Counted from the stretch's first letter, positions 41,269-58,448 are shown. The stretch: DNA of 64,000 bases from Bdellovibrionota bacterium (GCA_044345405.1 JBIJBE010000012.1:1-64000), one strand, 5' to 3'. Translations and numbers: made by a program. The notes: generated from the letters alone by a model not told the origin.

Positions 41269-41296
41269 TACCTCTTTTCTGACTCAGCCTACTCTT

Positions 41297-41533: not shown

Positions 41534-41575
41534 CCATGCCTACAGGGTCATGAGGCTAAACCTATGAACGAGAGT

Positions 41576-41703
41576 CGTTCACGTTTCCGTTCACGTTCAC
41601 GTTCACGTTCACGTTTACGTTCACGTTCACGTTCACGTTTACGTTTACGTTTACGTTTACGTTTACGTTTACGTTTACGTTTACGTTTACGTTTACGTTT
41701 ACG
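41576..41703. repeat. Hexanucleotide microsatellite (CGTTCA/CGTTTA)n, about 21 units
   Basis: Read directly; reverse complement of the CGTGAA/CGTAAA arms at 41323..41475. Confidence 0.92.
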
Positions 41704-41729
41704 GAACTATACGTGCTAGCTGCCGTTCA

Positions 41730-42248
41730 CTAATGCAACCCAAATTCCATCGAAAGATACTCCTCAAGTGGAGTGAGGTCGTGGTCCGCGAGGCGGACAA
41801 CACCGTTGCGGTCGATGAACACGACGTACGGTATGTTCCTTCCCTTTAAATTAACGAACGCGTCATCGTAGGAATCGTTCCCTGAAAAGATGTGGGTCAT
41901 GCTCTTCAAGCCCTGCTCCTGAATCCGGCCCTTCAGAACCTCGAAGTCCTCATTCTTGTCGATGCTTACCGCGATGAACTCCATATCGGCTCGTCTCGAA
42001 TAACGACGAGCGAGCGTCTCGTACCGCTGGATCAGGGAGCGAGAGTAGGTACACCAGGTCGCCCAGAACACGATACACACATTCTTTCCACGATAGGAAC
42101 TCAGCGGCACCTCAGAACCGTCAAAAAACATCAGGCGCGCCTCGGGTGCCTCATTACCGATCATCTCCTTGCCCTTGGCGTCCATGGCGGAGCAACCGCT
42201 CAACACCACAATCAGGATCGCGAGAAAACTAGAAAGAAAAGATCTCAT
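41730..42248 (-). CDS. TlpA-family thioredoxin-like lipoprotein with CxxS active site
   Basis: LSGC lipobox; FWATWCTYS; IPYVVFIDRNG. Confidence 0.85.
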   Translation of the reverse strand: MRSFLSSFLAILIVVLSGCSAMDAKGKEMIGNEAPEARLMFFDGSEVPLSSYRGKNVCIVFWATWCTYSRSLIQRYETLARRYSRRADMEFIAVSIDKNEDFEVLKGRIQEQGLKSMTHIFSGNDSYDDAFVNLKGRNIPYVVFIDRNGVVRLADHDLTPLEEYLSMEFGLH

Positions 42249-42396
42249 GGCATTTCCACACAAGGAGAGGGAAACCTCTCGACTACATTATCACATCCGT
42301 AAAGCTACTTGATTACGGCCGGAAAAGTAACCCCCATAGAGAATATCGGTTACTGCGGATAGCGCACTCTCCGCGAACACGTTACCTGCTCGATTC

Positions 42397-44841
42397 TCAT
42401 GACGCGCGTTCTTTCACCAAGGAGATCTTCTCCTCGTACACAGCGCGCACCCGTGGATCTGTCTCATCATCGTAGCTCTGGGAGATCAACTTCAAGAGCA
42501 TGATATCGTTCACCTTGGTCAGGCTCGACACCGCCGCAACGCGCACAGGGGCCGAAGGATGACCCAACAGATCAACGATATCGAGCTGGTCCATCGAATC
42601 ACTATACCGCCTCAATAGTATCTCAATCACCTCTGGAGGCGCTCCTCGAGTGAGCTGCCGGAGAAACTCTTGGCTCCGGGGGGCGTCTCGCACAACATCA
42701 AGCTCACTATTGAGAACATCAGCGCCAACAACATCTCGCAAGTCAATCGCGGCCACGACACCGGCGAAACGGGAGCTATCATTCCCATACGAAGATCGAA
42801 CAAACTCCATAATCTTGGCGACGTAAGGATCCGCGATCGGCTTCGCGCTCAAGGCGTCAAAGGCGGCCCGCTTTAACGAGGAGCTCGAAGCTGTGAGGAC
42901 CGTGGCCTCAAGAACACGGGACGCCCCCTGTCCGTACCACTCGTCAAAGAGTCTTACATCGTCCATCGAGAGGTTTCCGAGAGCTCCCGACACCATCGCC
43001 GTCCGAAGGCGCTGTCTCAGCGCGGCTGACCGTCGCAGCTCCCTGAGAAAGACGGCGCGTCCACCAGGGATACTCTGCCTTCGCTCCGCTATTTGCGCGG
43101 CGGTGGAGACCTCTGGCCGCCCTTGCCGTCCCAACTCCTCAAGGAGCCATACGACGTCACTCGCGGGAATCTTCTCCTGCATTGCCACGATATCCTCCGA
43201 AAAGAGATCATGCACGTCGGGCAGAAGCAGCATTAATGCGTACGGGTTATGCTCGCCCCCATTCGCGATACCCACCTGTTCAGCGACCGCCTTGGCGAAC
43301 AGTCCCCGATACGCTTCCGCGTCCCCAGTATCCAGCGCGCTCGCCGCGGCGAGAATACACGCTACACGTGGTGATACTTGATATAACCGCGCAAGCTCCT
43401 CGAGACGGGAATTACTTGACAACGCGGGATCCAATAAACGAAGAAATGGGCGGGATCCCTCATCTCCGCCAAAAGTCGCTGGCTCCTTCGCGTCCTGCAT
43501 TTGTCCAAACACCACGTCCGCGGTTCGCCCTAATCCCTGTCGTCGCGCCCGAAAGGTGAGGACCTTTTCAATCTCGAGGCGTCGAGCGGGATCCGGCGCT
43601 TGAGATAGCAATTCGATTATTTCCTGATACGCCGTTGGGGAGTCAGATTGGTACAATGCGGTGAGCCTCGTAGTGTCATCGTCTCGCTTTGTCACCTCAG
43701 CGACCTCGCGGCTTTCAAGGGCGATCGCCCCGGCGCGCCCGGCGACGTAGGAATAGAGAAGAAATCCCAGGGCGAAAAAGTTGAGAAAGGCGAGGAGAAG
43801 GACCCGACTCGGGTTTCTAAAGAGACCGACGACATCCCCGGCGAGAGATACTATCCGCTGCGGTGACACAAGGTCACCGAGTGATAATCCAGGACGTCCC
43901 CGAGAATCGAAACCACCGCCGGTTGGAGGCTCCGTTCCTGACTCCTCGTCATCATCCTCACGCCCCTCCCTAAAGCCCTTAGCTTTTCCTTGTGCCGGGG
44001 ACTCTAACTCTTCTCGAGCGGCCGCCTGAATTTTCGCCGCATCCCCCACCTCAGGCCGATCCTGAGCCTCCCCTTCTCCTGGCTCCGTTGGCTCTTCGTC
44101 ATCCCGAGGAAGGCGCGTGAGAGTCGCGGAATCGTGTTTTTTGCGAAGCTCCTCAGACGCGGTGGATTCCAGAAGCCCCTTAAGCCACGAAGGCGTCGCC
44201 TTCGATTCGACACTCTTCTCGTTAACCGGCACAGCGCACAATCCCTCACCAAGTCGAGCGAGCGCGTACGCGTCCACCGACGCCGTTTGGGTTCCACCGT
44301 TACGCTGCTCTGACGGCCGAAACGCTATGTATCGGTTGCGATTAAAATCCTCATCCTCTTGCTCCAACGCGACATCACCAAGAACCGCGAAAAGCGATAC
44401 TCCTCCCCGATCGTTGAGGAGAAAGGAATCAAGACAGAGATCCCCACACGTAATTCGACGCTGGTGGAGCGAATCAACTATCGCGGCACACGCGTCGAAA
44501 CGCTCCTCAATCTCATCGGCTGATGACGCGGGACAATCGATCTTGCGCCCATCATAGGCTCGAAGAACGGCGAATCCCCGATTGTAGCAGTCAATTCCAC
44601 ACGACAGGATAGCCTCAACTCTGGGAACTCTCCGCAACGCCAAGAGCCGCTCCTGGAAGCGCCCGATCTCCCCGACCCGTAACGGACCACGAGTGCGCCA
44701 TACCGTCACCTCGCGCCCCGTCACCGTATCAACGGCGCGATACGCTTGCGCGGTGAGCGTGCCAGCGACCGGTCCCTGAAAGTCGAACCGGTCCTCGAGA
44801 GAACCGCTCATTTTTTCGAAATCGTTCGACTGATGCTCCAT
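42397..44841 (-). CDS. Membrane pseudokinase with large helical/HEAT-like C-terminal domain
   Basis: Kinase-like N-terminus (AYRAVDTVTGREVTVW, CGDLCLDSFLL, RPSEQ, VDAYAL); acidic linker; TM helix VLLLAFLNFFALGFLLY; HEAT-like LLGHPSAPVRVAAVSSL. Confidence 0.7.
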   Translation of the reverse strand: MEHQSNDFEKMSGSLEDRFDFQGPVAGTLTAQAYRAVDTVTGREVTVWRTRGPLRVGEIGRFQERLLALRRVPRVEAILSCGIDCYNRGFAVLRAYDGRKIDCPASSADEIEERFDACAAIVDSLHQRRITCGDLCLDSFLLNDRGGVSLFAVLGDVALEQEDEDFNRNRYIAFRPSEQRNGGTQTASVDAYALARLGEGLCAVPVNEKSVESKATPSWLKGLLESTASEELRKKHDSATLTRLPRDDEEPTEPGEGEAQDRPEVGDAAKIQAAAREELESPAQGKAKGFREGREDDDEESGTEPPTGGGFDSRGRPGLSLGDLVSPQRIVSLAGDVVGLFRNPSRVLLLAFLNFFALGFLLYSYVAGRAGAIALESREVAEVTKRDDDTTRLTALYQSDSPTAYQEIIELLSQAPDPARRLEIEKVLTFRARRQGLGRTADVVFGQMQDAKEPATFGGDEGSRPFLRLLDPALSSNSRLEELARLYQVSPRVACILAAASALDTGDAEAYRGLFAKAVAEQVGIANGGEHNPYALMLLLPDVHDLFSEDIVAMQEKIPASDVVWLLEELGRQGRPEVSTAAQIAERRQSIPGGRAVFLRELRRSAALRQRLRTAMVSGALGNLSMDDVRLFDEWYGQGASRVLEATVLTASSSSLKRAAFDALSAKPIADPYVAKIMEFVRSSYGNDSSRFAGVVAAIDLRDVVGADVLNSELDVVRDAPRSQEFLRQLTRGAPPEVIEILLRRYSDSMDQLDIVDLLGHPSAPVRVAAVSSLTKVNDIMLLKLISQSYDDETDPRVRAVYEEKISLVKERAS

Positions 44842-44849
44842 TCCGTTTC

Positions 44850-46970
44850 CTACCGTCCAGCCAACGTCCACATTCCAATTTGCTGCACAGACACACTCGG
44901 ATCCAACTCCTCAAAGGTCGTAACGAACAACGAGTGCTTGGTCATTCGGGTAATCGAAAGGACTTTTTCCTTCACCTCATTAGAGCAGAGGAGCGCGATC
45001 GGAAGAATTCCCTGCTCTAGGGTCGGCTTCAAGACGTTCGAGAGTCCCTGCATAAGCGCGTCCAGCACCGGTGCCTCTACAGCCACCGGCAATGATTTAT
45101 TGTTAAAGTCGGCATCCTGGAGCGTTCGTTCAACCTCATCGGAGAGAGATACCACATGAAGGCTTTGATGAGACCCAAGGAATCTTCGAAGAACCTGGCG
45201 CCGACGATTTCCACGAAGGTGCCGTACCACCTCTTCAACCTCAACACCGGCGTCATCGTCAATCGAGACGCGATGGGCGGAGCAATAGGAGGCGACGCCC
45301 TCAATGACTCCGCGGAAGTCTCGAATACTAACCCCCTGCCTTACGAGCTCATGAAGCAGCTCCGTTAGTCGTGGCACCGATACGAACTCTTTACCGAATC
45401 CCTCTGCTATGAGTCCCGGGTGGCGCTTTTCGATCTGTCGTAACAATGAATGCACATCGGTTACGGAAAGAAACTCCTCGGGATGTCGGAGACTAAAGCT
45501 CGCCACACGAAGGGAGATGTACTCGAAGAAATCGTAGCTACGCACCGTTCCAGCGTCTAGGATGCCCCGTATCTGCGGCGTGTTCTTGGTCCAGAAGACC
45601 CGATGACCTGAGATAGGATGATCCTCCTCTTTGATCACAGGAAGCCCTAGCACGGCTGCCTGACAACTCGACACCTCCACAAGGAGCGCGTCCGCGGCGA
45701 CGGTCCCAGACACCATCTCAACACCTGAATGAGACACCCGATATGAAGACGGCGCGAGTAGATCGTTGTGCCCTACGTTAAGGTCGGGCAGAACCATACC
45801 TACATTGGCGTGAAACGCTTCATTGAACTGTTCCCACGACTCCGTGTACCGCTGAACCTGCGCCCGATACGCTTTGAAGAGGACGGTGTGATCGAGCTCT
45901 AAGCGAAGGGCACCATCACCAATCTCACTAACTCCCCGTTCGTGACGCACCTCGGATCCCCCTCCGGCGCGCCGGTATTCCCCAGCGATACCGCTCCGAA
46001 CAGGAAGCTCACGCTCCTTCCTCAGAAGTAAAAGACCCGCGGCAACCGCCGTCGCGGCGACAAGCAGGAATGGCGCAGCCGGGATGCCGGGCATGACGGC
46101 GAAAACAACCAAGATAAGCGCGGTCACTAAGAGAGTGATCGGTTGAGAGAATAGCTGCGCGCGAAGATCAACTCCAAGAGTCGAGGTCTCCGATGAGGAC
46201 ACACGCGTCACGATGATACCAGCGCAGATCGAGGTTAGAATACTCGGAATCTGTGTCACGAGACCGTCACCCACGGTAAGCACGGTGTATGTCTGCGCCG
46301 CGTCAGAGAATGAGAGCCCTGACGCGATACCCATGTAGATACCACCCACGATATTCACCACGATGATGAATATGCCCGCGACCGCGTCGCCCTGAACGAA
46401 CTTCATCGCTCCGTCCATCGAACCGTAGAGCTGAGACTCAAGTCTCAAGTGGTCGCGTTTCTGCCGTGCCTCCTCGGCTGAGATAACTCCAGCGCGGGCG
46501 TCATTATCAATAACCAACTGCCGTCCAGGCAACGCGTCGAGGAAGAACCTCGCGGCGACCTCGGACACGCGGGTCGCGCCTTTGGCGATTACGATGAAGT
46601 TTACGATGGTAACGATCGAGAAGATGATGATTCCAACGACCACCTCTCCGCGAATAAGGAAGGTACCGAAGGATTCGATCACTCGCCCAGCGTCTCCCTG
46701 ACTGAGAATAAGCCTTGATGAGGCCACGTTGAGCCCGAGACGGAAGAGCGTACTCAAGAGCAGTACCGTCGGGAACGTGTACAGGGCCGCGGAGTTGGCG
46801 ACGTAGAGACCAACGAGCAGGAGAAGGATCGAGAACGAGATATTGAGAACGAGAAGGATATCGAGAAGCGGTGTGGGAAGTGGAACGATAAGCATCGCCG
46901 CGATGGCGATCACGAACGCCAAAAGAACGATCTCCGAGTACCGCATCCGTCCTGAGAGTAATCCGATCAT
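44850..46970 (-). CDS. sctV: FHIPEP-family type III export gate protein, SctV/LcrD-like
   Basis: TLFRLGLNVASSRLIL, RVSEVAARF, ESQLYGSMDGAMKFVQGDA, GDGLVTQIPS, VSIRDF; start ATG 46970 with GAGGAGAGG RBS. Confidence 0.88.
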   Translation of the reverse strand: MIGLLSGRMRYSEIVLLAFVIAIAAMLIVPLPTPLLDILLVLNISFSILLLLVGLYVANSAALYTFPTVLLLSTLFRLGLNVASSRLILSQGDAGRVIESFGTFLIRGEVVVGIIIFSIVTIVNFIVIAKGATRVSEVAARFFLDALPGRQLVIDNDARAGVISAEEARQKRDHLRLESQLYGSMDGAMKFVQGDAVAGIFIIVVNIVGGIYMGIASGLSFSDAAQTYTVLTVGDGLVTQIPSILTSICAGIIVTRVSSSETSTLGVDLRAQLFSQPITLLVTALILVVFAVMPGIPAAPFLLVAATAVAAGLLLLRKERELPVRSGIAGEYRRAGGGSEVRHERGVSEIGDGALRLELDHTVLFKAYRAQVQRYTESWEQFNEAFHANVGMVLPDLNVGHNDLLAPSSYRVSHSGVEMVSGTVAADALLVEVSSCQAAVLGLPVIKEEDHPISGHRVFWTKNTPQIRGILDAGTVRSYDFFEYISLRVASFSLRHPEEFLSVTDVHSLLRQIEKRHPGLIAEGFGKEFVSVPRLTELLHELVRQGVSIRDFRGVIEGVASYCSAHRVSIDDDAGVEVEEVVRHLRGNRRRQVLRRFLGSHQSLHVVSLSDEVERTLQDADFNNKSLPVAVEAPVLDALMQGLSNVLKPTLEQGILPIALLCSNEVKEKVLSITRMTKHSLFVTTFEELDPSVSVQQIGMWTLAGR

Positions 46971-46983
46971 GCGTCCTCTCCTC

Positions 46984-47916
46984 TTACTCCATCGCCTTAA
47001 GAAGGGTTCGCCCGAAACCGACCAAAAGGATGAACAGGAATCCAGCGAACACGAGAGCAACTGGCGCGGTCGCCGCGAGCTCCAGTTTTTTAATTTTTTC
47101 CTCTACCTTCGTCTCACGTTCGGCCGACACCGACTCAGAGAGATCCTGAAGCTGCTTCGAGATCTCTCCTCCGTATCGAGCCACCTGCGCGAGCGCTTTG
47201 AAGGAGTGCTTCACCTCATTACTACCCGACTGTCTGCCAACCTCATTGAGAGCGTCCTGCAAACTCACTCCAGACTTGATGTAGGCCTGGGCGAACCGAA
47301 GAAGTTCGGTAACAGGGTTGTGAGAATCGCGCTCATCCGCCATCTGCACGACCCGCGCTAAGCACGGACCGATATCGAGGGAGCTACTGACGCCGATAGA
47401 GATCTGCTCGATGACGAGCGGAAGATAAAAAGTGATATCCTCCTGACGTAGCTTTATCCATTTATCAAGTCGCTTGAGGGGAATATATGCTCCGAGCATA
47501 CCTCCCACGGCTCCATACAAAATAGCGCTGGCCGGATCTCCACTCATCGATCCATACCCGGCACCGAGAAGTCCCAACGCGGATGGCATGACGACTTGAA
47601 GCCGTCGAAAATCTCGTCGCTGCTCCTCAGAGAAGAGTCCCGCTTGAAACATCCGCTCATCCAGGGTGAGAGACCTCTTCTTCCCCCCACCTTTTTTCGC
47701 GGCGAGCCTGGAGAGGATCTCGTCCTCAGCGCTTCGAGACTCGTCCGAGAACTCGTCGGAGCGATCTCCCTCTATTTCGTTATCATCTGAATACCTCTGC
47801 CCCATCAAGGCGCGAAGGTTGTCTCGCTGCTCAAGGGCCTTGAGGTATCTCACGCCATAGTAGGCGGCAACCGCCAGAATAATTGAGAATATAGGGATGA
47901 GAGTCCAGTTATTCAT
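46984..47916 (-). CDS. tadC: Tad inner-membrane platform TadC (T2SS F domain)
   Basis: Three TM regions, LPLVIEQISIGVSS, GVSLQDAL, YGGEISKQL; follows tadB. Confidence 0.85.
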   Translation of the reverse strand: MNNWTLIPIFSIILAVAAYYGVRYLKALEQRDNLRALMGQRYSDDNEIEGDRSDEFSDESRSAEDEILSRLAAKKGGGKKRSLTLDERMFQAGLFSEEQRRDFRRLQVVMPSALGLLGAGYGSMSGDPASAILYGAVGGMLGAYIPLKRLDKWIKLRQEDITFYLPLVIEQISIGVSSSLDIGPCLARVVQMADERDSHNPVTELLRFAQAYIKSGVSLQDALNEVGRQSGSNEVKHSFKALAQVARYGGEISKQLQDLSESVSAERETKVEEKIKKLELAATAPVALVFAGFLFILLVGFGRTLLKAME

Positions 47917-47922
47917 AGTCCC

Positions 47923-48909
47923 TTACACCCTAATCTTCGTAACCTGCATCACCCAGTACATGCCGATCATGATCATGGTAAGGCCTCCTTGAGCTACCTT
48001 AGCCGCGACCGGATCGGTCCAGGTGACGATAACGCACTCAGGCCACGCCAGGTACAAGTACGCCTCTAACGAGAATAAGATCCCGAGAATGAAAAGGATG
48101 GAGCCGCGCTGCAAGCCAACTGCCGCTTGGGCTGACGCCCGGAAATACTGACGCTTTCGAACCTGACGAGCCAATCTGTCCACCGTCTCTGATAGGTTAC
48201 CACCGACACGACGACTAAGAAGGAGAGATTGAACGAACAGTTCGATCTCAGGATGGTTTACGTCCTCGCCGAAGGAGCCGATCGAACGCTCCTCGCTAAC
48301 CCCCAACCGAAGTCGCTCCAACATCAGTTCAACCTCTTGTCGCACAAGAGACGCTTCCTCAAGATTGACGGCACACGCCTCGAGCGCCTGCATCGGGTTC
48401 AGTCCAGTCTTGAGCATACCCACAAAGCTAAGAAGGAATTGCGGAAAATCCCTGTCGAAGCGCTTAAAGCGCGCCTTGAGACGATTATTAATGAATGCGT
48501 TGACAACCAGCGGCCCTACCGTAAGAGCCATGAGTTGAAGCAAGATATAGAAGTATTGGCGCGCGATAAGGAACGCGCCAATGCTAAGCACTATCTGCGC
48601 TACCGCGAACACGAAGGGCGGTATGTGCGAGAGCTGGGCGAACTTGAGTCGCTTCTGAAGAGTCAGCTTGTTATCAGAGCTGGGGGCCATGCCCTCATCC
48701 TGCCCTTCCTCACCCGAACGTCCGTTGGTGGTATAGGTGAAAGCTCTTCTCTCGCCAGCCGCGTCCTCATCTCGCTGAGCCGCAACCATCTCTCGGATAC
48801 TCTGTCTGATGGCGACGTCAGAGCTGACGCCAAAGCCGATCACCCCCCGCGCCATGTAGGCGACGAGACCCAGTAAAAATATGGCGGGGATAACGAGCCA
48901 GAGAGTCAT
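47923..48909 (-). CDS. tadB: Tad inner-membrane platform TadB
   Basis: FPQFL..LKTGLNPMQAL, GGNLSETVDRLA; follows the ATPase. Confidence 0.88.
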   Translation of the reverse strand: MTLWLVIPAIFLLGLVAYMARGVIGFGVSSDVAIRQSIREMVAAQRDEDAAGERRAFTYTTNGRSGEEGQDEGMAPSSDNKLTLQKRLKFAQLSHIPPFVFAVAQIVLSIGAFLIARQYFYILLQLMALTVGPLVVNAFINNRLKARFKRFDRDFPQFLLSFVGMLKTGLNPMQALEACAVNLEEASLVRQEVELMLERLRLGVSEERSIGSFGEDVNHPEIELFVQSLLLSRRVGGNLSETVDRLARQVRKRQYFRASAQAAVGLQRGSILFILGILFSLEAYLYLAWPECVIVTWTDPVAAKVAQGGLTMIMIGMYWVMQVTKIRV

Positions 48910-48912
48910 ACG

Positions 48913-50448
48913 TTAGCCTTTCCCTCCCGGACGAACAGGCGGGCCAAATGTTATCTCCTTCGGGGATTCACCGAGGTGAATCCCATCCGCCTTGAGCTGC
49001 TCGTCGAAGTTACTTGTCCAGGAATCCACTCGCCACACCGGACGTTGTCCCTGCTTGATCAGCGTGAACATCGGACGCACCTGGATCTGCCCCTCAACGA
49101 AATGGCCAACCTCGATTACCTCGGCGATGCGAGGCTTACCGGTCGACTTCTCACGAATGAGCCACACGATGGAGTCGACCGCGAGCGCAATCTGTTGTCG
49201 GATGATGTCGATGGCGACTGATTTTTGAGCGCGGCCTAGCAAACTCTCCAGGCGGACGAGGGTCTCCCGCGCGTTTCGGGCGTGGATCGTCGACATTCCA
49301 ACATGCCCCGTTTGCGCGCTCTCAAGAAACGCCTCCGCCGAGAAGGGAGTTCTCATCTCACCAAGGATTACTCGGGTTGGGGTCATTCGAAGGGTTGTCT
49401 TGATGTGCTCCTGAAGTGTCACCTCTCCCATCCCTTCGGCGTTGGCCGCTCGAGAAACGAGCGATCGGAAAAACGGATGCGCGAAATTCAACTCAGGGGT
49501 ATCCTCGACCGCCACGATAGACTCATCGGGTCCAAATTGAGTCGCCAAACATTTGATCAGCGTCGTTTTACCTGTTCCGGTCTCGCCGGCGACCATCATG
49601 GTTGCCAACCCGCTTCGGATCAGGCACGCGAGGTAGTTTACGATCAGCGGAGGCGCTACTTGATAAGTAACGATGTTCTCAAGGGCGACCTCTGACATTC
49701 GAGGAACTCGGATACACAAAAGAGGGCCGCGCTGTCCGCACACGCTCTCATGAACGGCGCATAGTCGAGTTCCGTTCGGAAAAGATCCGTCCACGGTGTG
49801 CTGCGCCGTCGTTAAAGATTTCCCGAGGCGAAGGAGGAGTCGATCCAGGAACGTCACATACGCTTGGTGATTCGGCCAACTCAGTCCGGTCAGCTCACTA
49901 ACCTTTCCTCGTTGGAGAACAACGGACTTGTAGTCATAGACGTGAATGTCGGTTACCTCTTTGTTGTCAACGAGAGGTTGAAGAACGCCCCATCCTACGA
50001 GGTCTTTTTGGAGTGAGAGAATGATGTTCGCGCGTTCGATATCATCGAGGGTCTCTCCTCGTTTTTTCAGAACCTTGTCCACAGCGCCGGCGATAACCTT
50101 CTCGGTCATCGCTGGATTGTTCATCTGTTGTTGAAGGGAGAGATCGCTTCCCAGTTCTCGGCGAACTTCACGCATGACGATCGAAGCTGTCTGGGATAGC
50201 TCGGCACTTCGCGCGATGGGCGGTTTAGCGGCGGGGCGAATTTTTTCAGGCGCTGGTTGAATTACCTCAGCGCTGTTTTTTTGAACCGCGGGAAGCGAAC
50301 CAGGATTCGCCGGTGGGTTCGCGGGCGCTTTGCCCGGAGCTACGGCGGGGGCAGGCGTTGACTTGAGTGGTGCTATTCGAGTTTGCGTGCCTCGCGCGGA
50401 GAAGATCCCGAGCAAGTCTTCCTTACCGTCTTTGTCCGAACCAGCCAT
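48913..50448 (-). CDS. cpaF: Tad pilus assembly ATPase CpaF/TadA with Pro-rich N-terminal extension
   Basis: GWGVLQPL..VTDI, GETGTGKTT, VEDTPEL, LRMTPTRVILGEMR, TGH..STIHA. Confidence 0.93.
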   Translation of the reverse strand: MAGSDKDGKEDLLGIFSARGTQTRIAPLKSTPAPAVAPGKAPANPPANPGSLPAVQKNSAEVIQPAPEKIRPAAKPPIARSAELSQTASIVMREVRRELGSDLSLQQQMNNPAMTEKVIAGAVDKVLKKRGETLDDIERANIILSLQKDLVGWGVLQPLVDNKEVTDIHVYDYKSVVLQRGKVSELTGLSWPNHQAYVTFLDRLLLRLGKSLTTAQHTVDGSFPNGTRLCAVHESVCGQRGPLLCIRVPRMSEVALENIVTYQVAPPLIVNYLACLIRSGLATMMVAGETGTGKTTLIKCLATQFGPDESIVAVEDTPELNFAHPFFRSLVSRAANAEGMGEVTLQEHIKTTLRMTPTRVILGEMRTPFSAEAFLESAQTGHVGMSTIHARNARETLVRLESLLGRAQKSVAIDIIRQQIALAVDSIVWLIREKSTGKPRIAEVIEVGHFVEGQIQVRPMFTLIKQGQRPVWRVDSWTSNFDEQLKADGIHLGESPKEITFGPPVRPGGKG

Positions 50449-50741
50449 AGTAGATCCCTCGCAGTAGAAACAGCTATCCCACTCACCTCATCGGCGTATT
50501 CTTGAGCAGGGATTAGAAAAACCCGCCAAAAAACAGAAACAGAACAGTGATTTATCAAACAACATTCCTCAGCAAGGGCTCGGCTGACGGTATCGGAGCG
50601 ATTGTGGATGATGCGCGCCCGATCAGAGGGGGAACCGGGGAATGGCTGACAAGAAGGCTTTATCTCAGAACTGAGCCCCTAAGCCCGTTCGTGCACACAG
50701 AGGTACCAGGATAGGAGTTTCTACTACGAACTATGGCGAGG

Positions 50742-51638
50742 TTATCGCTGGGGCTTGTTTGAGCCCACGGAGTCCTCAGGCACAAGCTTACCACCTATAA
50801 TGAGGTAGTTACGCCCCCCGAAGGTGATTCGCCCCTCCCTTGGGGGCCCCGAGACGGCTTGGGGTGTCGCCAAACCAAACACAGCGTCGAGGGTCACTGT
50901 CTGACTATCAGCAGACTCAACGGTGTCCTCGTCTCCACGCAGGGCGAGACTCATGACACCCGCTGTAGAGGCGAGCTGTATCTTGGTTGCCTCCTCAACG
51001 GTAACCATGATGGTGATAGTTGTCGATCCCGCGCCTTTGACTGCCCGCGTACCACCGACCTTACCGGTCGAGAGAACCTTCGCATTCTGAGCGAGAAGCG
51101 TTATGACCGGCTTGTTAGATATTTGCGAAGCCAACATAACGTCCACCTTAGCCCCAGCTCGAACCCATCCCTCGACATTCGACACGTCATCAACGGAGAC
51201 CGATACGGCTCTGAAACCCTCGGGGATATTAGCTTGTATCTCATTCACCGGAGCTTTCGTGGTGATGTATTCGGCAAGAAGTGGCTGACCAGCCGCGATA
51301 AACGAGGCCGCGTACGCTCCCCGAAGCTTCTCAAAACTCGTAACGACCGACGCGCCACCACTAATAACAGGCCGAGTCTCCTTCTTGAATCGAGAGGGAT
51401 CCAGCGGCGTACCAGGCTCGATCTTTTCGGTAGCCACGAGACAATCGACCAATTCGACCACGGGCGCGGGCAAAGGTGTTGGGGTTGGAGGGGCAACAGG
51501 CGCCTGTTCGACCGACATAGATTGAACGACGAAAATAGCGCCTACGATCACAAGCAACGATGCGCCCAAAAGAGCCACACGCAGCGGCTCGTTTCCCTTT
51601 TTCCGACTAAAACCGCCTGCGGGTTTGACTGGAGGCAT
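50742..51638 (-). CDS. cpaB: Flp pilus assembly protein CpaB/RcpC
   Basis: N-terminal TM, SAF-like region, IPEGFRAVSV, GWVRAGAKVDV, LALRG. Confidence 0.9.
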   Translation of the reverse strand: MPPVKPAGGFSRKKGNEPLRVALLGASLLVIVGAIFVVQSMSVEQAPVAPPTPTPLPAPVVELVDCLVATEKIEPGTPLDPSRFKKETRPVISGGASVVTSFEKLRGAYAASFIAAGQPLLAEYITTKAPVNEIQANIPEGFRAVSVSVDDVSNVEGWVRAGAKVDVMLASQISNKPVITLLAQNAKVLSTGKVGGTRAVKGAGSTTITIMVTVEEATKIQLASTAGVMSLALRGDEDTVESADSQTVTLDAVFGLATPQAVSGPPREGRITFGGRNYLIIGGKLVPEDSVGSNKPQR

Positions 51639-51771
51639 CTAGTTCTCTCTGGGGTCTTGTGCTTGTTGACCAAGCGAAGGAATCAATCGCGAAAAACTGG
51701 TAGTGGCAATGCCGACCTGAACAGGTTAGCTCCCGGTACCAGACTCAAAAAACCGCGGATAACCCCGAATA

Positions 51772-51812
51772 AAAAATGCTGACGGCACTCTCGTTGTACT
51801 CGAGTGCCGTCA
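51772..51812 (-). terminator. Hairpin/terminator after flp
   Basis: TGACGGCACTC...GAGTGCCGTCA stem next to an A6 run. Confidence 0.65.
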
Positions 51813-51836
51813 TGCTGAAACCAAAGACAGGTTCAG

Positions 51837-52028
51837 TTATCCGGTGATCTGATTGCTCAAGGCGCTGAATTGCTGGCTAATTGTATTTCCGAGGCTTCGG
51901 ATAGCTACGATAGCGATGATTGCGATGAGCGCCACAAGCAGCGCGTACTCAACCAACGAAGCTCCCTTCTCAGCCTTCTTCACGCTCTTTGCCTGCTCTA
52001 CCTTAACTATTTCCATCTTTATCTCCAT
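51837..52028 (-). CDS. flp: Flp (type IVb/c) pilin
   Basis: KG/ASLVEYALLVALIAI prepilin cleavage site and EY Flp motif. Confidence 0.95.
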   Translation of the reverse strand: MEIKMEIVKVEQAKSVKKAEKGASLVEYALLVALIAIIAIVAIRSLGNTISQQFSALSNQITG

Positions 52029-52132
52029 AAACAAAACGTAGCTCAGTTGGGCAAGTGGGGCCTGCGCACGAAGCTGTAGACATCTATGCTAAACACGAAG
52101 GGAAAATCGAGCAAGCGGTTTTTTGTAGGGGC

Positions 52133-53401
52133 TTAACCTACGGTACCATCTCGCTTTCGCGAGAAGATACGCTGGAACCACCTTGGGGCCCCTGCCTCCC
52201 CCGAGACGTCAGCCTCGGGAGCCACCTCTCCCGCTTCAATCTCTCCCAAGAGACCTAATTCCTTAGCCGCCACTTCGAAGGTTTGCCGAATCGCCTTTCC
52301 ACCCATACTATAGAGCGTTTTACCACTACCTGGCCAAAGGGTTCCCTTGGTATCCCTCGGCAAGGGAGCCATTCGCCACGGTCGATCGCCCAATCTATGC
52401 GCCGGCTCAAGCTCGGCAGCAATCTGCTCAACGCTTGAGATCGCCCCCGCCGTGGGATTAACGAGGAAGCAAATCCGCTCAGGACTGCCCACGACCGATT
52501 TAACGAAGGAGAGAAAGAGGTCAACGGCGGTAACGCCCAGAACGGAGTCATCGATCACCACCAGAACGATATCGGCGTTCCGTATCAACGCTCCGGTCGC
52601 CGGCCCTAATCTACCGGCCGTATCGATGATGACAACATCGTTATCAGCCCTTGCAACTTCAGCTATTCGCTGGGCTATGGCCATACTCTCCGTGTGACAC
52701 ACGAGGTCCATGGACTCCGCTAAACGATCGGGGGTCGTAAGAACCGCCACATCGTTACTAATTGGAATCACGGCTGTCCTCAGGGTGTCTCGATTTATCT
52801 CCTGCTCTCCGCTCACCCACCCGCTCACGACCCGCGCCTCGTCGCCGCTCACCTTGAGCGCCCGACTGAGGTCTCGAGTCTCTACGTCGAGATCCCATAT
52901 TAATGTGCGTCGCCCGAACTGACCACAAACGTCGGCAAGGGCGGCCGCTACCGAAGTCGCGCCGACGCCACCTTTCGCGTGAGCGACAACAACAACTTTA
53001 CCCTCATGAGTTCGCCCTTCGCGGCGAAACTCTGTATTGATCGCGACAAGCTCTTGTAGAAAATCAAGTGGACTTCCACCTTCAGGGAAGACCTTGCGAA
53101 CCCCTGCCGAGTGGGCGAGTCGAAACGCGCCACCACCGTAGGCGTCATCAGTGACAAACATGATCAATTGGGGGCGAGGTGAGAGTGCGTTAGCTTGATG
53201 AGCGAGCGCCAAACCCGCTTCGCCCATACCCGAACCTATCACCACCACATCAGCGTCAGCGGCACGGTCAGCGAAATCCTTGTCGCTAACGAGCTTAACC
53301 TTCAGATCAAGCATTTCCAAGTCGCCCCGACTGAAGGACTCGATGCGCTTCGCGCATCGCGCTTGAGCCTCTGTTGTCTTATCAACGATGAGCAGTTTCA
53401 T
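52133..53401 (-). CDS. cpaE: CpaE/TadZ-like receiver plus MinD/ParA-type ATPase
   Basis: Receiver-like MKLLIVD N-terminus; AKGGVGATS deviant Walker A; DLD; VIIDT. Confidence 0.85.
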   Translation of the reverse strand: MKLLIVDKTTEAQARCAKRIESFSRGDLEMLDLKVKLVSDKDFADRAADADVVVIGSGMGEAGLALAHQANALSPRPQLIMFVTDDAYGGGAFRLAHSAGVRKVFPEGGSPLDFLQELVAINTEFRREGRTHEGKVVVVAHAKGGVGATSVAAALADVCGQFGRRTLIWDLDVETRDLSRALKVSGDEARVVSGWVSGEQEINRDTLRTAVIPISNDVAVLTTPDRLAESMDLVCHTESMAIAQRIAEVARADNDVVIIDTAGRLGPATGALIRNADIVLVVIDDSVLGVTAVDLFLSFVKSVVGSPERICFLVNPTAGAISSVEQIAAELEPAHRLGDRPWRMAPLPRDTKGTLWPGSGKTLYSMGGKAIRQTFEVAAKELGLLGEIEAGEVAPEADVSGEAGAPRWFQRIFSRKRDGTVG

Positions 53402-53413
53402 CTTTTGACTCTC

Positions 53414-54805
53414 TTAAAAATGCCATTTAGCTAACAACGACGGAGCAAACAACTTGAGAAACATAAAGCCACACCCGATACCTACTGCTGCCGCGAAGAT
53501 AAGCACAAGGATTTCACCCCAGTGAGAATCCTTTTCACTGTTTCGGCGCGGCCCGCTTCTCGAGCGCGCAGGGCGGAACTCCGCGGACCTCTCCTTTACG
53601 TTAGCCTCTTGGAAATTAGACACAAGAGGCTCTGACGCGGAATAGGGAACATCTGTTTCAACAGGGGCGTTACTGAGTGGCTCCTCGAGCCCACGACCCT
53701 CACTTACGCGAGACCGCCCCGCCACCTGATGGGAGTGGTTGGCATACCCCTCTGGCTCAACGCTCCGCATACCAACGTTTGAGACGCCAGCCTCTTCAAA
53801 GCCTCCCCGAGAATCCTCTCCCTCTCCGTGAGAGCTCCGCATCATTCCCGCTCGCTCTCCATCACTGACCGCCTCTGAGGGAGTAGCGCGTCGTTGAGAA
53901 ACCGAGGATGAGTGTCCGGCGTTTCCTGGGGAAACCACAACCCCGCCATCGAGATCCATCTCTACCGCCAGACTCTGCAAATCGCGAAACATGTCGATTG
54001 ACGCTTGGTATCGCTTCTCTGGTTCTCGCTGCATCGCCTTCAGGATGATTCGATCGAGCTCTGGTGGGCATTCCTCGCGCAAAGAGCTAGGCGGAGCTGG
54101 ATCTGTCTTAAGACGCTTCGTCATGGTCGCGTAGACGCTCTCGCCCTTGAATGGAGAATCTCCGGTTACCATCTCATACGCCAAGATTCCAAGCGCGTAG
54201 ATGTCGGACCTCCAGTCGACCTGAGATTTTAACATATACTCGGGCGCCACATAGTCTATGGTCCCGACCACGCCTCCGTGCTCGGTCAACTTAGGTCCGT
54301 GGCGATTACGAGCTATGCCGAAATCCGCGATCTTTACGTTCCCCTCAGCTGTAAGAAGAATATTTTCCGGTTTTAAATCACGGTGCACTATCCCCGCGTC
54401 GTGAATCGCCTGACACCCGGCGGACATCTGGCTCAGGATCCGCATTATCTCTGGGATCGGAATCCGCTCATCCGAACCGAGCTTCGACGCGAGATCTCCA
54501 CCACCAACGAATTCCATCGTATATGCGACAAAGTCTCGATCCGTAAGGTACTCGTAGGCTCTCACAACATTGGGATGCGATACCTCATACGCGGCAAGGA
54601 TCTCATTCTTGAATCGCGCCGCCGCGACCTTATCCGTGGCGACCTCCGGGAACAACACCTTCATCGCGACGATCTGGCCTTGCAGCACCTGATTCTTACA
54701 CGCGTACACCGATCCCATACTGCCGGAGCCGAGGCACTTCACGACCTCGTACTTCCCGCCAATGACGGCACCCGGTTGTAGGTTTATGGTGTGCTCTTCA
54801 CTCAT
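53414..54805 (-). CDS. Hanks-type Ser/Thr protein kinase with C-terminal membrane anchor
   Basis: LGSGSMGSVY, VAMK, HRDLKPEN, DFG, APE, SDIYALG all intact. Confidence 0.95.
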   Translation of the reverse strand: MSEEHTINLQPGAVIGGKYEVVKCLGSGSMGSVYACKNQVLQGQIVAMKVLFPEVATDKVAAARFKNEILAAYEVSHPNVVRAYEYLTDRDFVAYTMEFVGGGDLASKLGSDERIPIPEIMRILSQMSAGCQAIHDAGIVHRDLKPENILLTAEGNVKIADFGIARNRHGPKLTEHGGVVGTIDYVAPEYMLKSQVDWRSDIYALGILAYEMVTGDSPFKGESVYATMTKRLKTDPAPPSSLREECPPELDRIILKAMQREPEKRYQASIDMFRDLQSLAVEMDLDGGVVVSPGNAGHSSSVSQRRATPSEAVSDGERAGMMRSSHGEGEDSRGGFEEAGVSNVGMRSVEPEGYANHSHQVAGRSRVSEGRGLEEPLSNAPVETDVPYSASEPLVSNFQEANVKERSAEFRPARSRSGPRRNSEKDSHWGEILVLIFAAAVGIGCGFMFLKLFAPSLLAKWHF

Positions 54806-54817
54806 ACAAGCGGACGA

Positions 54818-56050
54818 CTATCCCTCCTCCACCTCGCCAACGACGAGGAGGACATGAAACTTTCGATCTCCAAAGAACAGTACGTCCCCATGAGACAAGG
54901 AGCTCTTCTCGCCTGAGAGGAACTCCTCTTCCCTTTGACCGACACGTTTGACACGAGTGCCGGACTCAGAGAGTTGATCCAAAACCTGCAGACTACCGCC
55001 CGCGGCTACTCGCATGATGGCGTGCATTGGAGAAACGGAATCTCCGACAACAACGAGACAATTTCCCGAATCCTCGCGTTGATTCGAGACCATGAGGCGC
55101 CCCTGGCGAAGCTCCACATACGTTCCGTTCGAATCATGGTCATAGGTCACTAGAAATCCAACGAGCGGTGACTCGCTCTTCCAGTAAATCTGATCTCGTG
55201 GTTCGCTCATAAGCTCAGCGTCCGGCGCCTCTTGATAGGTACTCGTTTTCAGTTCAGATGGAAAAACCTGCCCCTCTCTAGATTGGACCGCCGGCGCCGC
55301 CGTTTGATGGAGCGAAGGTGGAATTATGAGGCGCTCGTTCGGCACGGCCCTCTCATCCTCTCGCACGGCCGTTGGCGTCGGTGGGGACTCCTCGACGACG
55401 GGATCGAGATTCGGCACATCCTCAAAGGTGTCCTCAAGGTCACTATCACTGAGAACCGGGGACGCCTCCGCCGACATTTGCGGATCTCGCGGCTCCTCTT
55501 CATGCTCCATGGCGGCGAATGGATCAAAGAGGTCGGTCGCGACAACCTGGACGGGCGGATTGAGGATCCCAGAGGGAGAGCGTACGATCTTCGGGGCCGC
55601 AACCTGAGCTGACGCGGCAGGAGGCGGCTCAAAAACATCAAGCACTGATTGGAAATCATCATCAAGCCCCAGATCCCTCATGAGGGTCGATGAAGCGTCT
55701 TTCGAGCCGGATTCCCCCGCGGTGACCCGCTCGACGGTCTCCTGGGCTTCGGTAGCTCTGGTATCCTCATGCATAGTCCCAAAGATCTCATCAAGGCTCT
55801 GGAAATCATCATGGTGAGAGACTGGCGTGACAAACTCGTCCTGCTCAAGAGTATCAAGTCCGAGCGGATCGAGATCTCGCGCGTGAGGTTCTCCGCGAGA
55901 ACCAAGCGGCTCGATAGGAGTAGCCCGCTCAACAGTCGCGCCGAGCGTGGAAACCCGTTCAGCTCCGATAATCATAGTGCGATTGCGAGCCCGCGTTCCC
56001 GCTGGAAGGCCCTTATCTCCGCTCCCTGGTCGCCCTGTGTCATCTTTCAT
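54818..56050 (-). CDS. Acidic disordered protein with C-terminal FHA-like domain
   Basis: DSVSPMHAIM..LDQLSESGTRV..LSHGDVLFFG; lies between the phosphatase and the kinase. Confidence 0.75.
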   Translation of the reverse strand: MKDDTGRPGSGDKGLPAGTRARNRTMIIGAERVSTLGATVERATPIEPLGSRGEPHARDLDPLGLDTLEQDEFVTPVSHHDDFQSLDEIFGTMHEDTRATEAQETVERVTAGESGSKDASSTLMRDLGLDDDFQSVLDVFEPPPAASAQVAAPKIVRSPSGILNPPVQVVATDLFDPFAAMEHEEEPRDPQMSAEASPVLSDSDLEDTFEDVPNLDPVVEESPPTPTAVREDERAVPNERLIIPPSLHQTAAPAVQSREGQVFPSELKTSTYQEAPDAELMSEPRDQIYWKSESPLVGFLVTYDHDSNGTYVELRQGRLMVSNQREDSGNCLVVVGDSVSPMHAIMRVAAGGSLQVLDQLSESGTRVKRVGQREEEFLSGEKSSLSHGDVLFFGDRKFHVLLVVGEVEEG

Positions 56051-56062
56051 AAGCAGCTCCCT

Positions 56063-57061
56063 CTACAAATTCCTTAAAACCCTGAGATAGAAAAATAGTG
56101 CCACCGCCCCCAAAGACGCCCCCACGGCGACGATGCTCGCGGTCACCATGTGGTAAATGAGGGAACGCCGCCACCAATCCCCGATTCGGCGGCTTCGCTC
56201 CCGACTCGCGATCTCTCGTCCCCAGGTGGGGGATTCCTCAGTTCGCAGATGCCCGTGAAGGGGAATTATTGAGATCGTTATGTTGTCGAACCCTCCCCTA
56301 GTATTCGCGAGCTGAATTAACTCGGCGCACGCTTTGCGAGGAGCCAGCACAGTGACGATTCGACGAATCTCCTCCTCACTGACCAAGCTGTAGAGACCAT
56401 CGGAGCACAGAACCAAGAGGTCAGACGCGCCTCCCCGCTCCAACGGCCAGATCCAATATCGATTCACATCGACCGTCACATCAGGAGAGGAACCAAGACA
56501 TTGCGTGAGCACATGGGACCGTGGATGCGTCAACGCCTCTTCTCGGGTTATCTCATTTCGGTCAACGAGTTGCTGCACATACGTATGGTCAACGGTGAGT
56601 TGCTGGATGCCTTCCTCGTGAACAAGGTACGCTCGCGAGTCCCCGACATGCGCGATGGCTACCGCGGAGTCCTCTATCAACGCCCCAACGATGGTGGTCC
56701 CCATCTCCTTGAAACGTTGACTCTGGCGGCGAAGCATGATCGTTCTGTTGGCTTCCTCGCAGGCGTTTCTCAGCGCTTCAACAACGTCCCCGTGATGTTC
56801 GGCCGTTAGAAATCTTCGAACCGCGTCAACACTGATCTGCGCGGCGAACTCTCCACCCTCCGCACCTCCCATTCCATCAAGCACGAGGAAGCACACACCC
56901 CGCTCGGTAGCGATCGTCGCGCACCTATCCTCATTCTCGGAGCGCTCAACTCCGACGTCGCTCATGGCGGCATGAACGAGCGGCTCGTCGATGACGGGGC
57001 TCGCGCGCTTGCGCTTATTTTTGCTCGACTCGCTCTGTGCTTGCATTACGTTGCGGTCCAT
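56063..57061 (-). CDS. PP2C/Stp1-family Ser/Thr phosphatase with C-terminal TM
   Basis: SDVGVERSENED, DGMGG, MGTT, HVGDSRAY, CSDGL, GGFDNIT. Confidence 0.95.
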   Translation of the reverse strand: MDRNVMQAQSESSKNKRKRASPVIDEPLVHAAMSDVGVERSENEDRCATIATERGVCFLVLDGMGGAEGGEFAAQISVDAVRRFLTAEHHGDVVEALRNACEEANRTIMLRRQSQRFKEMGTTIVGALIEDSAVAIAHVGDSRAYLVHEEGIQQLTVDHTYVQQLVDRNEITREEALTHPRSHVLTQCLGSSPDVTVDVNRYWIWPLERGGASDLLVLCSDGLYSLVSEEEIRRIVTVLAPRKACAELIQLANTRGGFDNITISIIPLHGHLRTEESPTWGREIASRERSRRIGDWWRRSLIYHMVTASIVAVGASLGAVALFFYLRVLRNL

Positions 57062-57454
57062 TCAAGTCACGGGACTCATTCATCGATCCAGTCTCAACGA
57101 GTGAGGTGACGGAGCCCACCGGCGCCGTCCGCGCAAACACCCCTGGATCGTTAAAAGTTTCCCTGCGTTGGGGGTCGGCACGAATCAAAAGGGGCTAAAT
57201 AGTTTAAGGCCCTTGAGCTACGGAAAACCTCTAAAAATAACACTGGTTTGAGAAGAGTCGGTTCGCCGTCGCGATATCGATATCGGAACGCATAGGGCTT
57301 CGAACAGAAAACACAAACAATCTTAGGCTATTGTCGCGATACAAGCGGTTCCCCCGCAAGGAGATGAGCCGTTCGCCCTTTGCGCTTCCCAAGCCGAGTG
57401 CCCTATAACCCTCACCAGAACATCGTCTATAAACCAGCTGATTGAACCACTCTC

Positions 57455-57688
57455 GTGAACGCATCCACCCCGCAAAAACTCTCGTTGCTGCTCCTCTGTT
57501 TCGTCGTTATCGCGTTACTTGCTCCCTATGCGGGCTGCAACGGGCTCACCGTTGAATCAGATAGTCCTCCTACCCACTCAACAAGCAAGCAGGAGCGAAT
57601 CGCTCCCTCCCGCACCGCGCGATCTACGGATAAGATTCCAAGAGGGAATCAGCCGCTGGACCAAATCGAGGATATCTTGTCGAACTAA
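57455..57688 (+). CDS. Possible small lipoprotein
   Basis: Hydrophobic stretch ending YAGC; divergent from the PP2C gene. Confidence 0.45.
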   Translation: MNASTPQKLSLLLLCFVVIALLAPYAGCNGLTVESDSPPTHSTSKQERIAPSRTARSTDKIPRGNQPLDQIEDILSN

Positions 57689-57860
57689 CGCCACAACCTC
57701 CCCTAAACCCGAACAAAAACGGCAAATAAGCCCACCGAGTCGAGAGATACTCCGGTCCATGGATGGGAACTTATCGCTGTTTATGTGATAGAATAACTCA
57801 TCGACGCCGCCCATCGGAGCAACGACTACACCGAGGCCCTAGTTTTTCCAGCGAGAAGAG

Positions 57861-58448
57861 ATGGTAACCCTAAATAAGATCTATACGAGGACGGGAGATG
57901 ACGGAACCACAGGTCTCGTCGGTGGAGCTAGAATAAAGAAGAACGCCATCCGCGTATCGGCCTACGGCGATATCGACGAACTCAACAGCCACCTTGGGTT
58001 GTGCGTAACGCTGTGCGTCGAGAGCATCTTTCAACCTCTGCGCGACAAACTCACGATCATTCAAAACGAATTATTCGATATCGGCTCAGAGCTCGCGTCA
58101 CCCGCGGGAACAACGAGTCCCTCAATTCCCACGACGACCCCACCACAGGTAGATCGACTGGAGAGTTGGATAGACGAGCTGAATAACTCCCTCCCTACTC
58201 TGCAATCGTTCGTTTTGCCGGGCGGTACGCTCCTCAACGCGCATCTCCATATCGCGAGAACCGTATGTCGTCGGGGCGAACGAGCGGTATTGGAGCTGCA
58301 CGAGTCGGAGCCCGTCAACGAGCACACACGACACTACCTCAACAGATTAAGCGACCTGCTGTTCGTCATGAGTCGCTCCGCCGCGACCTTAGCTGGAAAT
58401 AAGGAATTCCTGTGGGTGCCCGGCGCGTCAAGGCTCGCAAAGCCTTAG
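57861..58448 (+). CDS. pduO: Cob(I)alamin adenosyltransferase, PduO-type
   Basis: KIYTRTGDDGTT, YGDIDELNS, FVLPGG, RTVCRRGER, YLNRLSDLLF. Confidence 0.95.
   Translation: MVTLNKIYTRTGDDGTTGLVGGARIKKNAIRVSAYGDIDELNSHLGLCVTLCVESIFQPLRDKLTIIQNELFDIGSELASPAGTTSPSIPTTTPPQVDRLESWIDELNNSLPTLQSFVLPGGTLLNAHLHIARTVCRRGERAVLELHESEPVNEHTRHYLNRLSDLLFVMSRSAATLAGNKEFLWVPGASRLAKP

Follow-up and report, generated by a model that had tools for sequence, protein, structure and literature searches.

In Myxococcus xanthus, a Tad-like machine, Kil, and a type III secretion system devoid of a needle, T3SS*, have their genes at separate loci and co-localise where the cell touches its prey (PMC12075869; PMC8460266). 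As these studies describe it, the recruitment of T3SS* to the contacts requires Kil, and one joint complex has been proposed (PMC12075869); KilF is an ATPase with an N-terminal FHA domain, Kil includes a short secretin, KilC, and a threonine-phosphorylation switch has been suggested for it (PMC8460266). As far as a 2025 review sets it out, the co-occurrence of Kil and T3SS* is apparently limited to one myxobacterial suborder (PMC12428579). Here, we analysed a stretch of 64,000 nucleotides from a Bdellovibrionota bacterium (GCA_044345405.1, JBIJBE010000012.1:1-64000; hereafter the window, at its full length), which carries a Tad pilus operon with an export-gate gene of the FHIPEP family built into it, together with a phospho-signalling module. 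In this lineage, a Tad system is genuinely and anciently fused, at the genetic level, to a needle-less type III core, and the gate belongs to an FHIPEP clade of its own.

The source genome was assembled from a metagenome (3.59 Mb on 85 contigs; completeness 99.4%, contamination 3.5%), and the window corresponds to bases 1-64000 of its contig C67. ORF (open reading frame) calling combined with Pfam and NCBIfam profiles recovered all eleven co-oriented genes that a first-pass annotation of the bare sequence had listed at 42397-57061, on the minus strand and in the order PP2C, FHA, Ser/Thr kinase, CpaE, Flp, CpaB, CpaF, TadB, TadC, FHIPEP and pseudokinase. They are given below, from the first gene of the cluster onward, with the gene that follows them:

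56063..57061, minus strand: PP2C-type Ser/Thr phosphatase, 332 amino acids, first gene of the cluster (PF13672, 67.3 bits; PF00481, 59.2 bits)
54818..56050, minus strand: FHA-domain protein, 410 amino acids, with an acidic, low-complexity N-terminal part and a C-terminal FHA domain (PF00498, 20.1 bits; cut-off 20.7)
53414..54805, minus strand: Hanks-type Ser/Thr kinase, 463 amino acids, with a C-terminal membrane anchor (Pkinase, 183.2 bits)
52133..53401, minus strand: CpaE/TadZ-like ATPase of the ParA/MinD family, 422 amino acids (AAA_31, 52.2 bits)
51837..52034, minus strand: Flp-type pilin, 65 amino acids (PF04964, 38.9 bits; cut-off 32.2)
50742..51638, minus strand: CpaB/RcpC, 298 amino acids (TIGR03177, 124 bits, cut-off 71; RcpC, 67.7 bits; SAF, 25.8 bits)
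48913..50448, minus strand: CpaF/TadA-type secretion ATPase, 511 amino acids (T2SSE, 108.8 bits)
47923..48909, minus strand: TadB platform protein, 328 amino acids (T2SSF, 47.4 bits)
46984..47916, minus strand: TadC platform protein, 310 amino acids (T2SSF, 54.1 bits)
44850..46970, minus strand: FHIPEP-family export-gate protein, 706 amino acids (PF00771, 576.4 bits)
42397..44841, minus strand: membrane pseudokinase, 814 amino acids (hhalign match to the operon's kinase; HEAT_2, 21 bits, weak)
41730..42263, minus strand: thioredoxin/AhpC-like protein, 177 amino acids (AhpC-TSA, 46.3 bits)

The gaps that join cpaF, tadB, tadC, the FHIPEP gene and the 814-residue gene are 3, 6, 13 and 8 bp, exactly as first counted, given an ATG start at 46970 for the FHIPEP gene (13 bp past the tadC stop and directly after GAGGAG) and another at 44841 for the 814-residue gene (8 bp past the FHIPEP stop); the remaining gaps in the cluster measure 12, 12, 12, 98, 198 and 293 bp. 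The G+C content of the region is even. A consensus scan of 41000-58000 gave 7 promoter-like sites for 7.5 expected, and no terminator-like sites in the gaps from cpaF to the pseudokinase, those present in the interval being mostly weak and intragenic.

The 706-residue protein had first been called SctV. That it belongs to the FHIPEP family is clear (cut-off for PF00771 29.1 bits; match over profile positions 2-656 of 657), while its assignment to the canonical injectisome SctV does not hold: it fails both equivalog cut-offs, with 562.1 bits against 692.25 for SctV (TIGR01399) and 515.1 against 772.1 for FlhA (TIGR01398). The closest solved structure is SctV 7alw, aligned end-to-end at 390 bits versus 312 bits for FlhA, and language-model features place InvA-like clusters nearest to it, which we take as a lead only. 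Of 36 FHIPEPs from other lineages scored on the SctV model, 31 pass the cut-off, and all 10 labelled Myxococcota or delta-proteobacteria do so with 782-825 bits, unlike the Tad-linked proteins.

The genome carries three FHIPEP genes, on C67 (the window), C9 and C18. The C9 protein (850 Pfam bits, 841 on the FlhA model) is the flagellar gate and lies in a canonical cluster, motA-motB-fliL-fliM-fliP-fliQ-fliR-flhB-flhA-flhG-fliA; the window FHIPEP, which is 32% identical to this C9 protein, is therefore not the genome's only FlhA. The third paralogue (C18:17112-23047; 637 amino acids, with a Pfam match in two pieces) is preceded upstream, in order, by a sigma factor, an SctJ-like gene, a 70-residue gene, an SctQ-like gene and a 138-residue gene; it was found in nearly all of 41 genomes sampled within the genus and order and in 5/5 genomes of other orders.

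A tree of 82 FHIPEP proteins (LG+G4) resolves four well-supported and separate groups: the Tad-linked proteins (25 members, support 99), the third paralogues (11, support 100), FlhA (14, support 99) and SctV (32, including Myxococcota, Chlamydiales, Yersinia, Bordetella and Rhizobiales; support 99). The same four-way separation was obtained with 49 rows under LG+C20+F+G4, and the Tad-linked clade is set apart from FlhA and SctV with supports of 99, 99 and 98-99 across the two models. Even with the Myxococcota SctV proteins included, the window FHIPEP thus falls outside the SctV clade, against the initial label. Note that the rooting on FlhA is an assumption, and that the branch joining the Tad-linked group to the third paralogue has moderate support, 90 then 79. 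The window protein is neither a flagellar FlhA nor a canonical injectisome SctV and belongs to a Tad-linked FHIPEP clade of its own. Across 23 orthologues, the family-defining loop between membrane helices does not vary at all, the cytoplasmic domain being far more variable, and this invariance speaks for a working gate.

The linkage of this gene to tadC extends far beyond the window. FHIPEP matches were present in all 41 of the genus- and order-level genomes and form three classes, the orthologues of the window protein (40-91% identity), FlhA (~32-34%) and the third paralogue (~44-52% over the membrane domain). The order-level sample comprises 20 orthologue loci, 6 belonging to the genus itself and 14 to other families of the order. 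In 20/20 of them TadC immediately precedes FHIPEP, and the pseudokinase follows in 19/20, the case of G026 being visible only by profile; in G027 a pseudokinase homologue is found on another contig. Most loci whose contigs extend far enough display the entire order from PP2C to the thioredoxin-like gene. Intergenic distances in relatives range from an overlap to ~270 bp, depending on the start codons chosen.

Outside the order, the first six loci examined from other orders of the same class (6/6) all read CpaF-TadB-TadC-FHIPEP-pseudokinase and continue with an SctD-like double-FHA protein, a homologue of the 448-residue protein found on C76 here. In G051 and G058, the run goes on along the same strand with another FHA/YscD-like protein, then SctJ, a pair of small genes, SctQ, SctR and SctS, a 294-residue gene in the place of SctT (without a Pfam match there) and a short SctU. 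The adjacency first seen in a single sequence is thus conserved in relatives, and the proposal that the two machines are genetically fused is borne out in other orders, where the same cluster runs on into SctD-like, SctJ, SctQ and SctRSTU genes. A further 20 loci of other orders were selected through pseudokinase matches: in 10, TadC, the pseudokinase and the FHA gene come with an FHIPEP that is still recognisable, 3 reach contig ends with FHIPEP and pseudokinase present, and 1 shows the pseudokinase alone; the others, from families f22 and f28, are considered below. The contiguous Tad and type III form occurs in most families outside the window's order.

We also scanned species representatives for FHIPEP loci, keeping the best 80 of at least 600 stretches, a sample and not a census. 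FHIPEP has Tad genes alongside in 6 of these best 80 loci, which are titled Bdellovibrionota or just 'bacterium', none Myxococcota, and which may overlap genomes already examined. Among the matches listed, the closest named records show the same synteny with an FHIPEP 62-63% identical and are titled 'MAG: Bdellovibrionota bacterium', and the Myxococcota- or Archangium-titled loci have SctR and SctU beside SctV, without Tad genes. As it is conserved throughout the lineage, the gene arrangement is far beyond chance; what is directly observed comprises the genes present, their linkage throughout the lineage, the uninterrupted passage into type III core genes in sister orders and an FHIPEP clade that stands apart.

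As first noted, the window holds no other type III or flagellar export genes: the FliP, FlhB, YscJ/FliF and FliI/SctN families have zero matches in it, and all genome-wide matches lie on other contigs. The genome does hold such genes elsewhere. Besides the complete flagellar set, there is one non-flagellar SctRSTU set, on C78 (FliP 170 bits, Bac_export_3 46.5, Bac_export_1 92.7, Bac_export_2 130), in a run that encodes a 119-residue protein with a weak SctI-like match (E 8e-4), a 348-residue protein, SctR, SctS, SctT, the membrane part of SctU, a GAF-PAS histidine kinase and a 126-residue C-terminal domain of SctU. SctU is therefore split (C78:439-4853) into a gene of 331 codons (profile positions 2-255) and one of 126 (262-333), separated by the 1030-residue kinase; it is likewise short, 261-275 residues, in G051 and G058. 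C76 encodes two FHA/YscD-like proteins, SctJ, a 174-residue protein, SctQ and a TPR protein (Yop-YscD_cpl 56, YscJ_FliF 37 and FliMN_C 51 bits), and C22 encodes a FliH/SctL-like protein (FliH 23.8 bits, just under its cut-off), the SctN ATPase (fliI_yscN 437 bits against a cut-off of 379.5) and a pair of small genes. The export core is complete but dispersed, with the FHIPEP gate on C67, SctRSTU on C78, SctJ, SctD-like and SctQ on C76, and SctL and SctN on C22.

Two secretins (PF00263) were found in the whole genome, one of GspD type (503 bits) and one of PilQ type (340 bits), both away from the locus. Neither a Tad-type nor an SctC-type secretin was found in this 99.4%-complete genome, the SctC model giving 102 and 115 bits against a cut-off of 238. 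The needle family PF09392 has zero matches, as it has in all 14 control genomes. The type III set is secretin-less and probably needle-less, in which it resembles the Myxococcus T3SS*.

Immediately downstream of the gate, the 814-residue protein bears a single hydrophobic helix (347-365) followed by a helical-repeat part of ~450 residues with a weak HEAT match. When 19 orthologues are combined into a profile, its first ~280 positions align with the domain of the operon's kinase (hhalign; 98.8% probability, E 7e-17). In this alignment, the position of the ATP-binding beta-3 Lys is a Trp, the HRDLKPEN catalytic loop corresponds to cGDlcxxSF with both the catalytic Lys and Asn replaced, and DFG corresponds to mG-f, without the Asp. 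The initial call of a pseudokinase stands, because the profile matches a kinase fold and the catalytic residues are replaced, and a membrane pseudokinase with a kinase fold is a supported assignment at the level of sequence. Note that the fold is visible only by the family profile, as direct BLASTP against the operon's kinase gave no match (E 0.67), and that there were zero sequence matches among solved chains at E up to 0.1; the language-model neighbours are 'kinase plus HEAT' proteins, which again is a lead only. Profile matches (E up to 1e-10) occur in 124/124 genomes of the phylum examined and span the family-specific C-terminal domain in all but ~5 of them.

The signalling genes at the head of the cluster are conserved as well. 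The PP2C orthologue holds the same position in relatives, and its score on the Stp1/IreP model NF033484 (NCBIfam) is 229.4 for a cut-off of 230. The C-terminal ~120 residues of the FHA protein are 44-64% identical among orthologues, and the orthologous stretch in relatives also matches the FHA/YscD-like C-terminus of a 465-residue C76 protein; a search for a hydrophobic segment in the 410 residues returned none. The Ser/Thr kinase has its hydrophobic segment at 432-450 and a kinase domain 64-71% identical across the class. A gene for a response-regulator-SpoIIE phosphatase, also of PP2C type, stands upstream of the cluster (58961-60175 of the window, minus strand), a position kept in same-genus loci.

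On the pilus side, a Tad/Flp system is represented by its Flp pilin, CpaB, CpaF-type ATPase, TadB and TadC. The pilin has the motif GASLVEYALL and a hydrophobic helix at 27-45. The CpaE-like ATPase is 51-69% identical across the class and reaches 54 bits on CpaE_hom_Actino, under its cut-off; CpaF (58-89% identity in relatives) scores 208.5 bits on TIGR03819, under the cut-off of 373, and has no FHA domain match in Pfam at E up to 0.01. No gene for a recognised secretin (CpaC/RcpA), TadD, a pseudopilin or a prepilin peptidase (CpaA/TadV) was seen in the locus, the sole Peptidase_A24 match of the genome being on C19. The thioredoxin/AhpC-like gene comes next after the pseudokinase in most loci of the order, whereas other orders have the SctD-like FHA gene at this position; the thioredoxin-like gene is a neighbour conserved within this one order and probably lies outside the machine. 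A second Tad-like locus (C1:1825-11855) comprises ParA-like, CpaB, CpaF, TadB and TadC genes, then a response regulator and a hybrid histidine kinase, without FHIPEP.

From this comparison, we consider it probable, with a good deal of doubt remaining, that one composite envelope apparatus draws its pilus half and its export gate from the cluster, whose products co-assemble at one site with a needle-less type III core. Four parts would be involved: a Tad/Flp pilus motor (CpaE, CpaF, TadB, TadC, CpaB and the Flp pilin); a needle-less and secretin-less type III core, with its gate from the Tad operon and its other parts from C76, C78 and C22; a Ser/Thr phospho-switch made of the membrane kinase, the PP2C phosphatase and the FHA reader; and the membrane pseudokinase, encoded next after the gate. 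The kinase and the pseudokinase would sense an envelope or contact signal, FHA proteins would bind the resulting phospho-threonine marks, and the pilus motor and the type III core would then co-assemble at a single site, where the core would move cargo over the inner membrane and the Flp pilus would provide the contact, perhaps also the outward route. We infer co-assembly, as we do the signal, the cargo and the target. This working resembles the one suggested for Kil and T3SS* in the Myxococcus studies, so far as they describe it, and a role in predation or host contact may follow. A bolder version, which we hold to be doubtful, is a third type III branch beside the flagellum and the injectisome, in which the core would dock on the Tad motor with the pseudokinase as coupler, and the Flp pilus would take the needle's role, cargo being loaded onto it or pushed along it to the target cell.

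Several observations weigh against the composite apparatus. Within the window's order, genes for the type III core have relocated to other contigs and the gate has stayed with the Tad genes, so that the gate may serve the pilus alone. The third FHIPEP has SctJ-like and SctQ-like neighbours of its own, and the synteny that would pair the window gate with SctRSTU is seen in other orders only. Among the 20 loci selected through the pseudokinase, four of family f28 (L163, L164, L167 and L168) have a strongly diverged FHIPEP between tadC and the pseudokinase (574-685 residues, 28-58 Pfam bits), and two of family f22 (L165 and L166) have the FHIPEP-pseudokinase pair without Tad genes, in genomes of 1.2-1.8 Mb where gpsA, fmt, rpe and plsY are the neighbours and no Tad genes lie within 4 kb upstream. 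The stretch was found in lake-water metagenome contigs and in no listed RNA run, co-transcription being presumed. A physical complex of Tad and type III parts is what we propose from gene order; when TadB, TadC and residues 1-345 of the gate, its membrane domain, were predicted as a complex, each with its alignment, the score was 0.00 in both runs and the controls did not fold, a result that speaks neither for nor against it. None of the organisms has been cultured, and predation is presumed on the strength of the Bdellovibrionota label. Finally, homology of the Tad part to Kil is not supported by the sequences: it cannot be claimed, because the window CpaF is only 28-31% identical to its best matches in 4/5 genomes, reached partly via Myxococcota-labelled loci, the fifth giving no match.

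Could the two machines merely share their regulation? A Tad pilus and a type III machine lacking a needle might be co-encoded for joint production, with no contact and independent working. Linkage demonstrates co-inheritance and probably co-expression, not contact, and the location of the core on other contigs in the window's order indicates that full tight linkage is dispensable. Yet when the rest moved, the gate gene kept its place between tadC and the pseudokinase, with gaps of 13 and 8 bp, which is unexpected if the gate belonged only to the other machine; in addition, the Myxococcus machines co-localise and T3SS* recruitment requires Kil, as reported in PMC12075869. We judge shared regulation alone to be unlikely, if still a serious competitor. 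Less likely again is a takeover of the FHIPEP by the pilus, in which it would act with the Tad platform alone, for example as an energiser driven by ions or, together with the pseudokinase, as a scaffold in the membrane, and SctRSTU would pair with the third FHIPEP. The count of two non-flagellar FHIPEPs for one non-flagellar SctRSTU set would be explained in this way, as would the SctJ-like and SctQ-like neighbours of the third paralogue, the fact that, of the type III parts, only the gate still accompanies the Tad genes in the window's order, and the retention of a diverged FHIPEP in the Tad operon of family f28. However, the FHIPEP that shares one run with SctD-like, SctJ, SctQ and SctRSTU genes in other orders is the Tad-linked one rather than the third paralogue, and the loop that marks the family is invariant in it, as it is in working gates.

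Two more explanations are, in our view, extremely improbable. The FHIPEP might be a flagellar FlhA, or a decaying duplicate, lying beside the Tad operon by chance; it is of the same Pfam family and still reaches 515 bits on the FlhA model, but this identity was rejected, since the canonical FlhA is on C9 with 32% identity, the open frame is full in the relatives examined and the protein falls in its own clade. The junction might also be an artefact of assembly or binning joining unrelated DNA, the genome being metagenome-assembled on 85 contigs; this was rejected too, as the same junction occurs in dozens of separately assembled genomes, the G+C content is even, and the stretch is present in contigs of 13 lake-water runs not flagged as its possible source.

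Elsewhere in the window, a 1703-residue ORF without Pfam match (19239-24350, minus strand) contains ~1200 residues of (T-P-T-x) repeats, 55% Thr and 22% Pro, which account for a marked skew of both GC and AT at 20-24 kb. Two ClpX-type genes, each with a ClpX zinc finger and AAA_2, lie on the minus strand at 5619-6872 and 37310-38569, the second within a tig-clpP-clpX-lon run just downstream of the Tad cluster.

The pairing of Tad with a needle-less type III system, known from Myxococcus at separate loci, is thus found in a different lineage with both sets in one conserved cluster. This lineage gives independent comparative support for a functional unit of Tad and type III parts, and indicates that the pairing has a greater age or a wider spread than thought. 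It also provides candidate coupling proteins, namely the gate, the pseudokinase and the FHA proteins, and a new FHIPEP lineage that current annotation models call neither SctV nor FlhA. No description of a Tad-FHIPEP fusion appeared in the literature found by full-text search, subscription-only papers and supplements lying outside it.

Compared with canonical Tad/Flp loci (Caulobacter cpa, Aggregatibacter tad), the cluster has the Flp pilin, CpaB, CpaE, CpaF, TadB and TadC in the usual order and differs by the insertion of the FHIPEP gene and the phospho-signalling module. Its gate aligns over its full length with injectisome SctV (7alw) and has its membrane domain, linker and cytoplasmic domain in the same succession, but no sctRSTU, sctN or sctC lies alongside in the window's genome. 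It shares with flagellar FlhA the Pfam family and 32-34% identity, but is encoded outside the flagellar cluster of a genome that keeps a separate FlhA. The H1 type VI system of Pseudomonas is controlled by a threonine-phosphorylation switch composed of PpkA, PppA and Fha1. As in that switch, a trio of membrane Hanks kinase, PP2C phosphatase and FHA protein is here encoded with a putative contact-dependent machine; it is tied to Tad and type III parts, not to those of type VI, and accompanied by an additional pseudokinase. By description only, the 814-residue protein recalls EssB/YukC of type VIIb systems, which spans the membrane once, has a dead-kinase domain in the cytoplasm and is likewise encoded in a secretion locus, but the outer domain of the 814-residue protein is of helical-repeat, HEAT-like type.

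The nearest precedent remains Kil and T3SS* of Myxococcus, as presented in the two studies concerned (Seef 2021, PMC8460266; Nat Commun 2025, PMC12075869). As described there, both cases combine a Tad-type machine rich in FHA partners with a secretin-less type III basal body or sorting platform. In contrast to the two separate loci of Myxococcus, the parts here form one cluster, or at least the gate lies inside the Tad operon. Unlike in Kil, CpaF is without an FHA match and there is no Tad-type secretin; and while the Myxococcota SctV proteins pass the SctV cut-off and fall inside the SctV clade, the window FHIPEP does neither. Finally, the kinase, the phosphatase and the pseudokinase are, unlike in Kil/T3SS*, built into the cluster itself.

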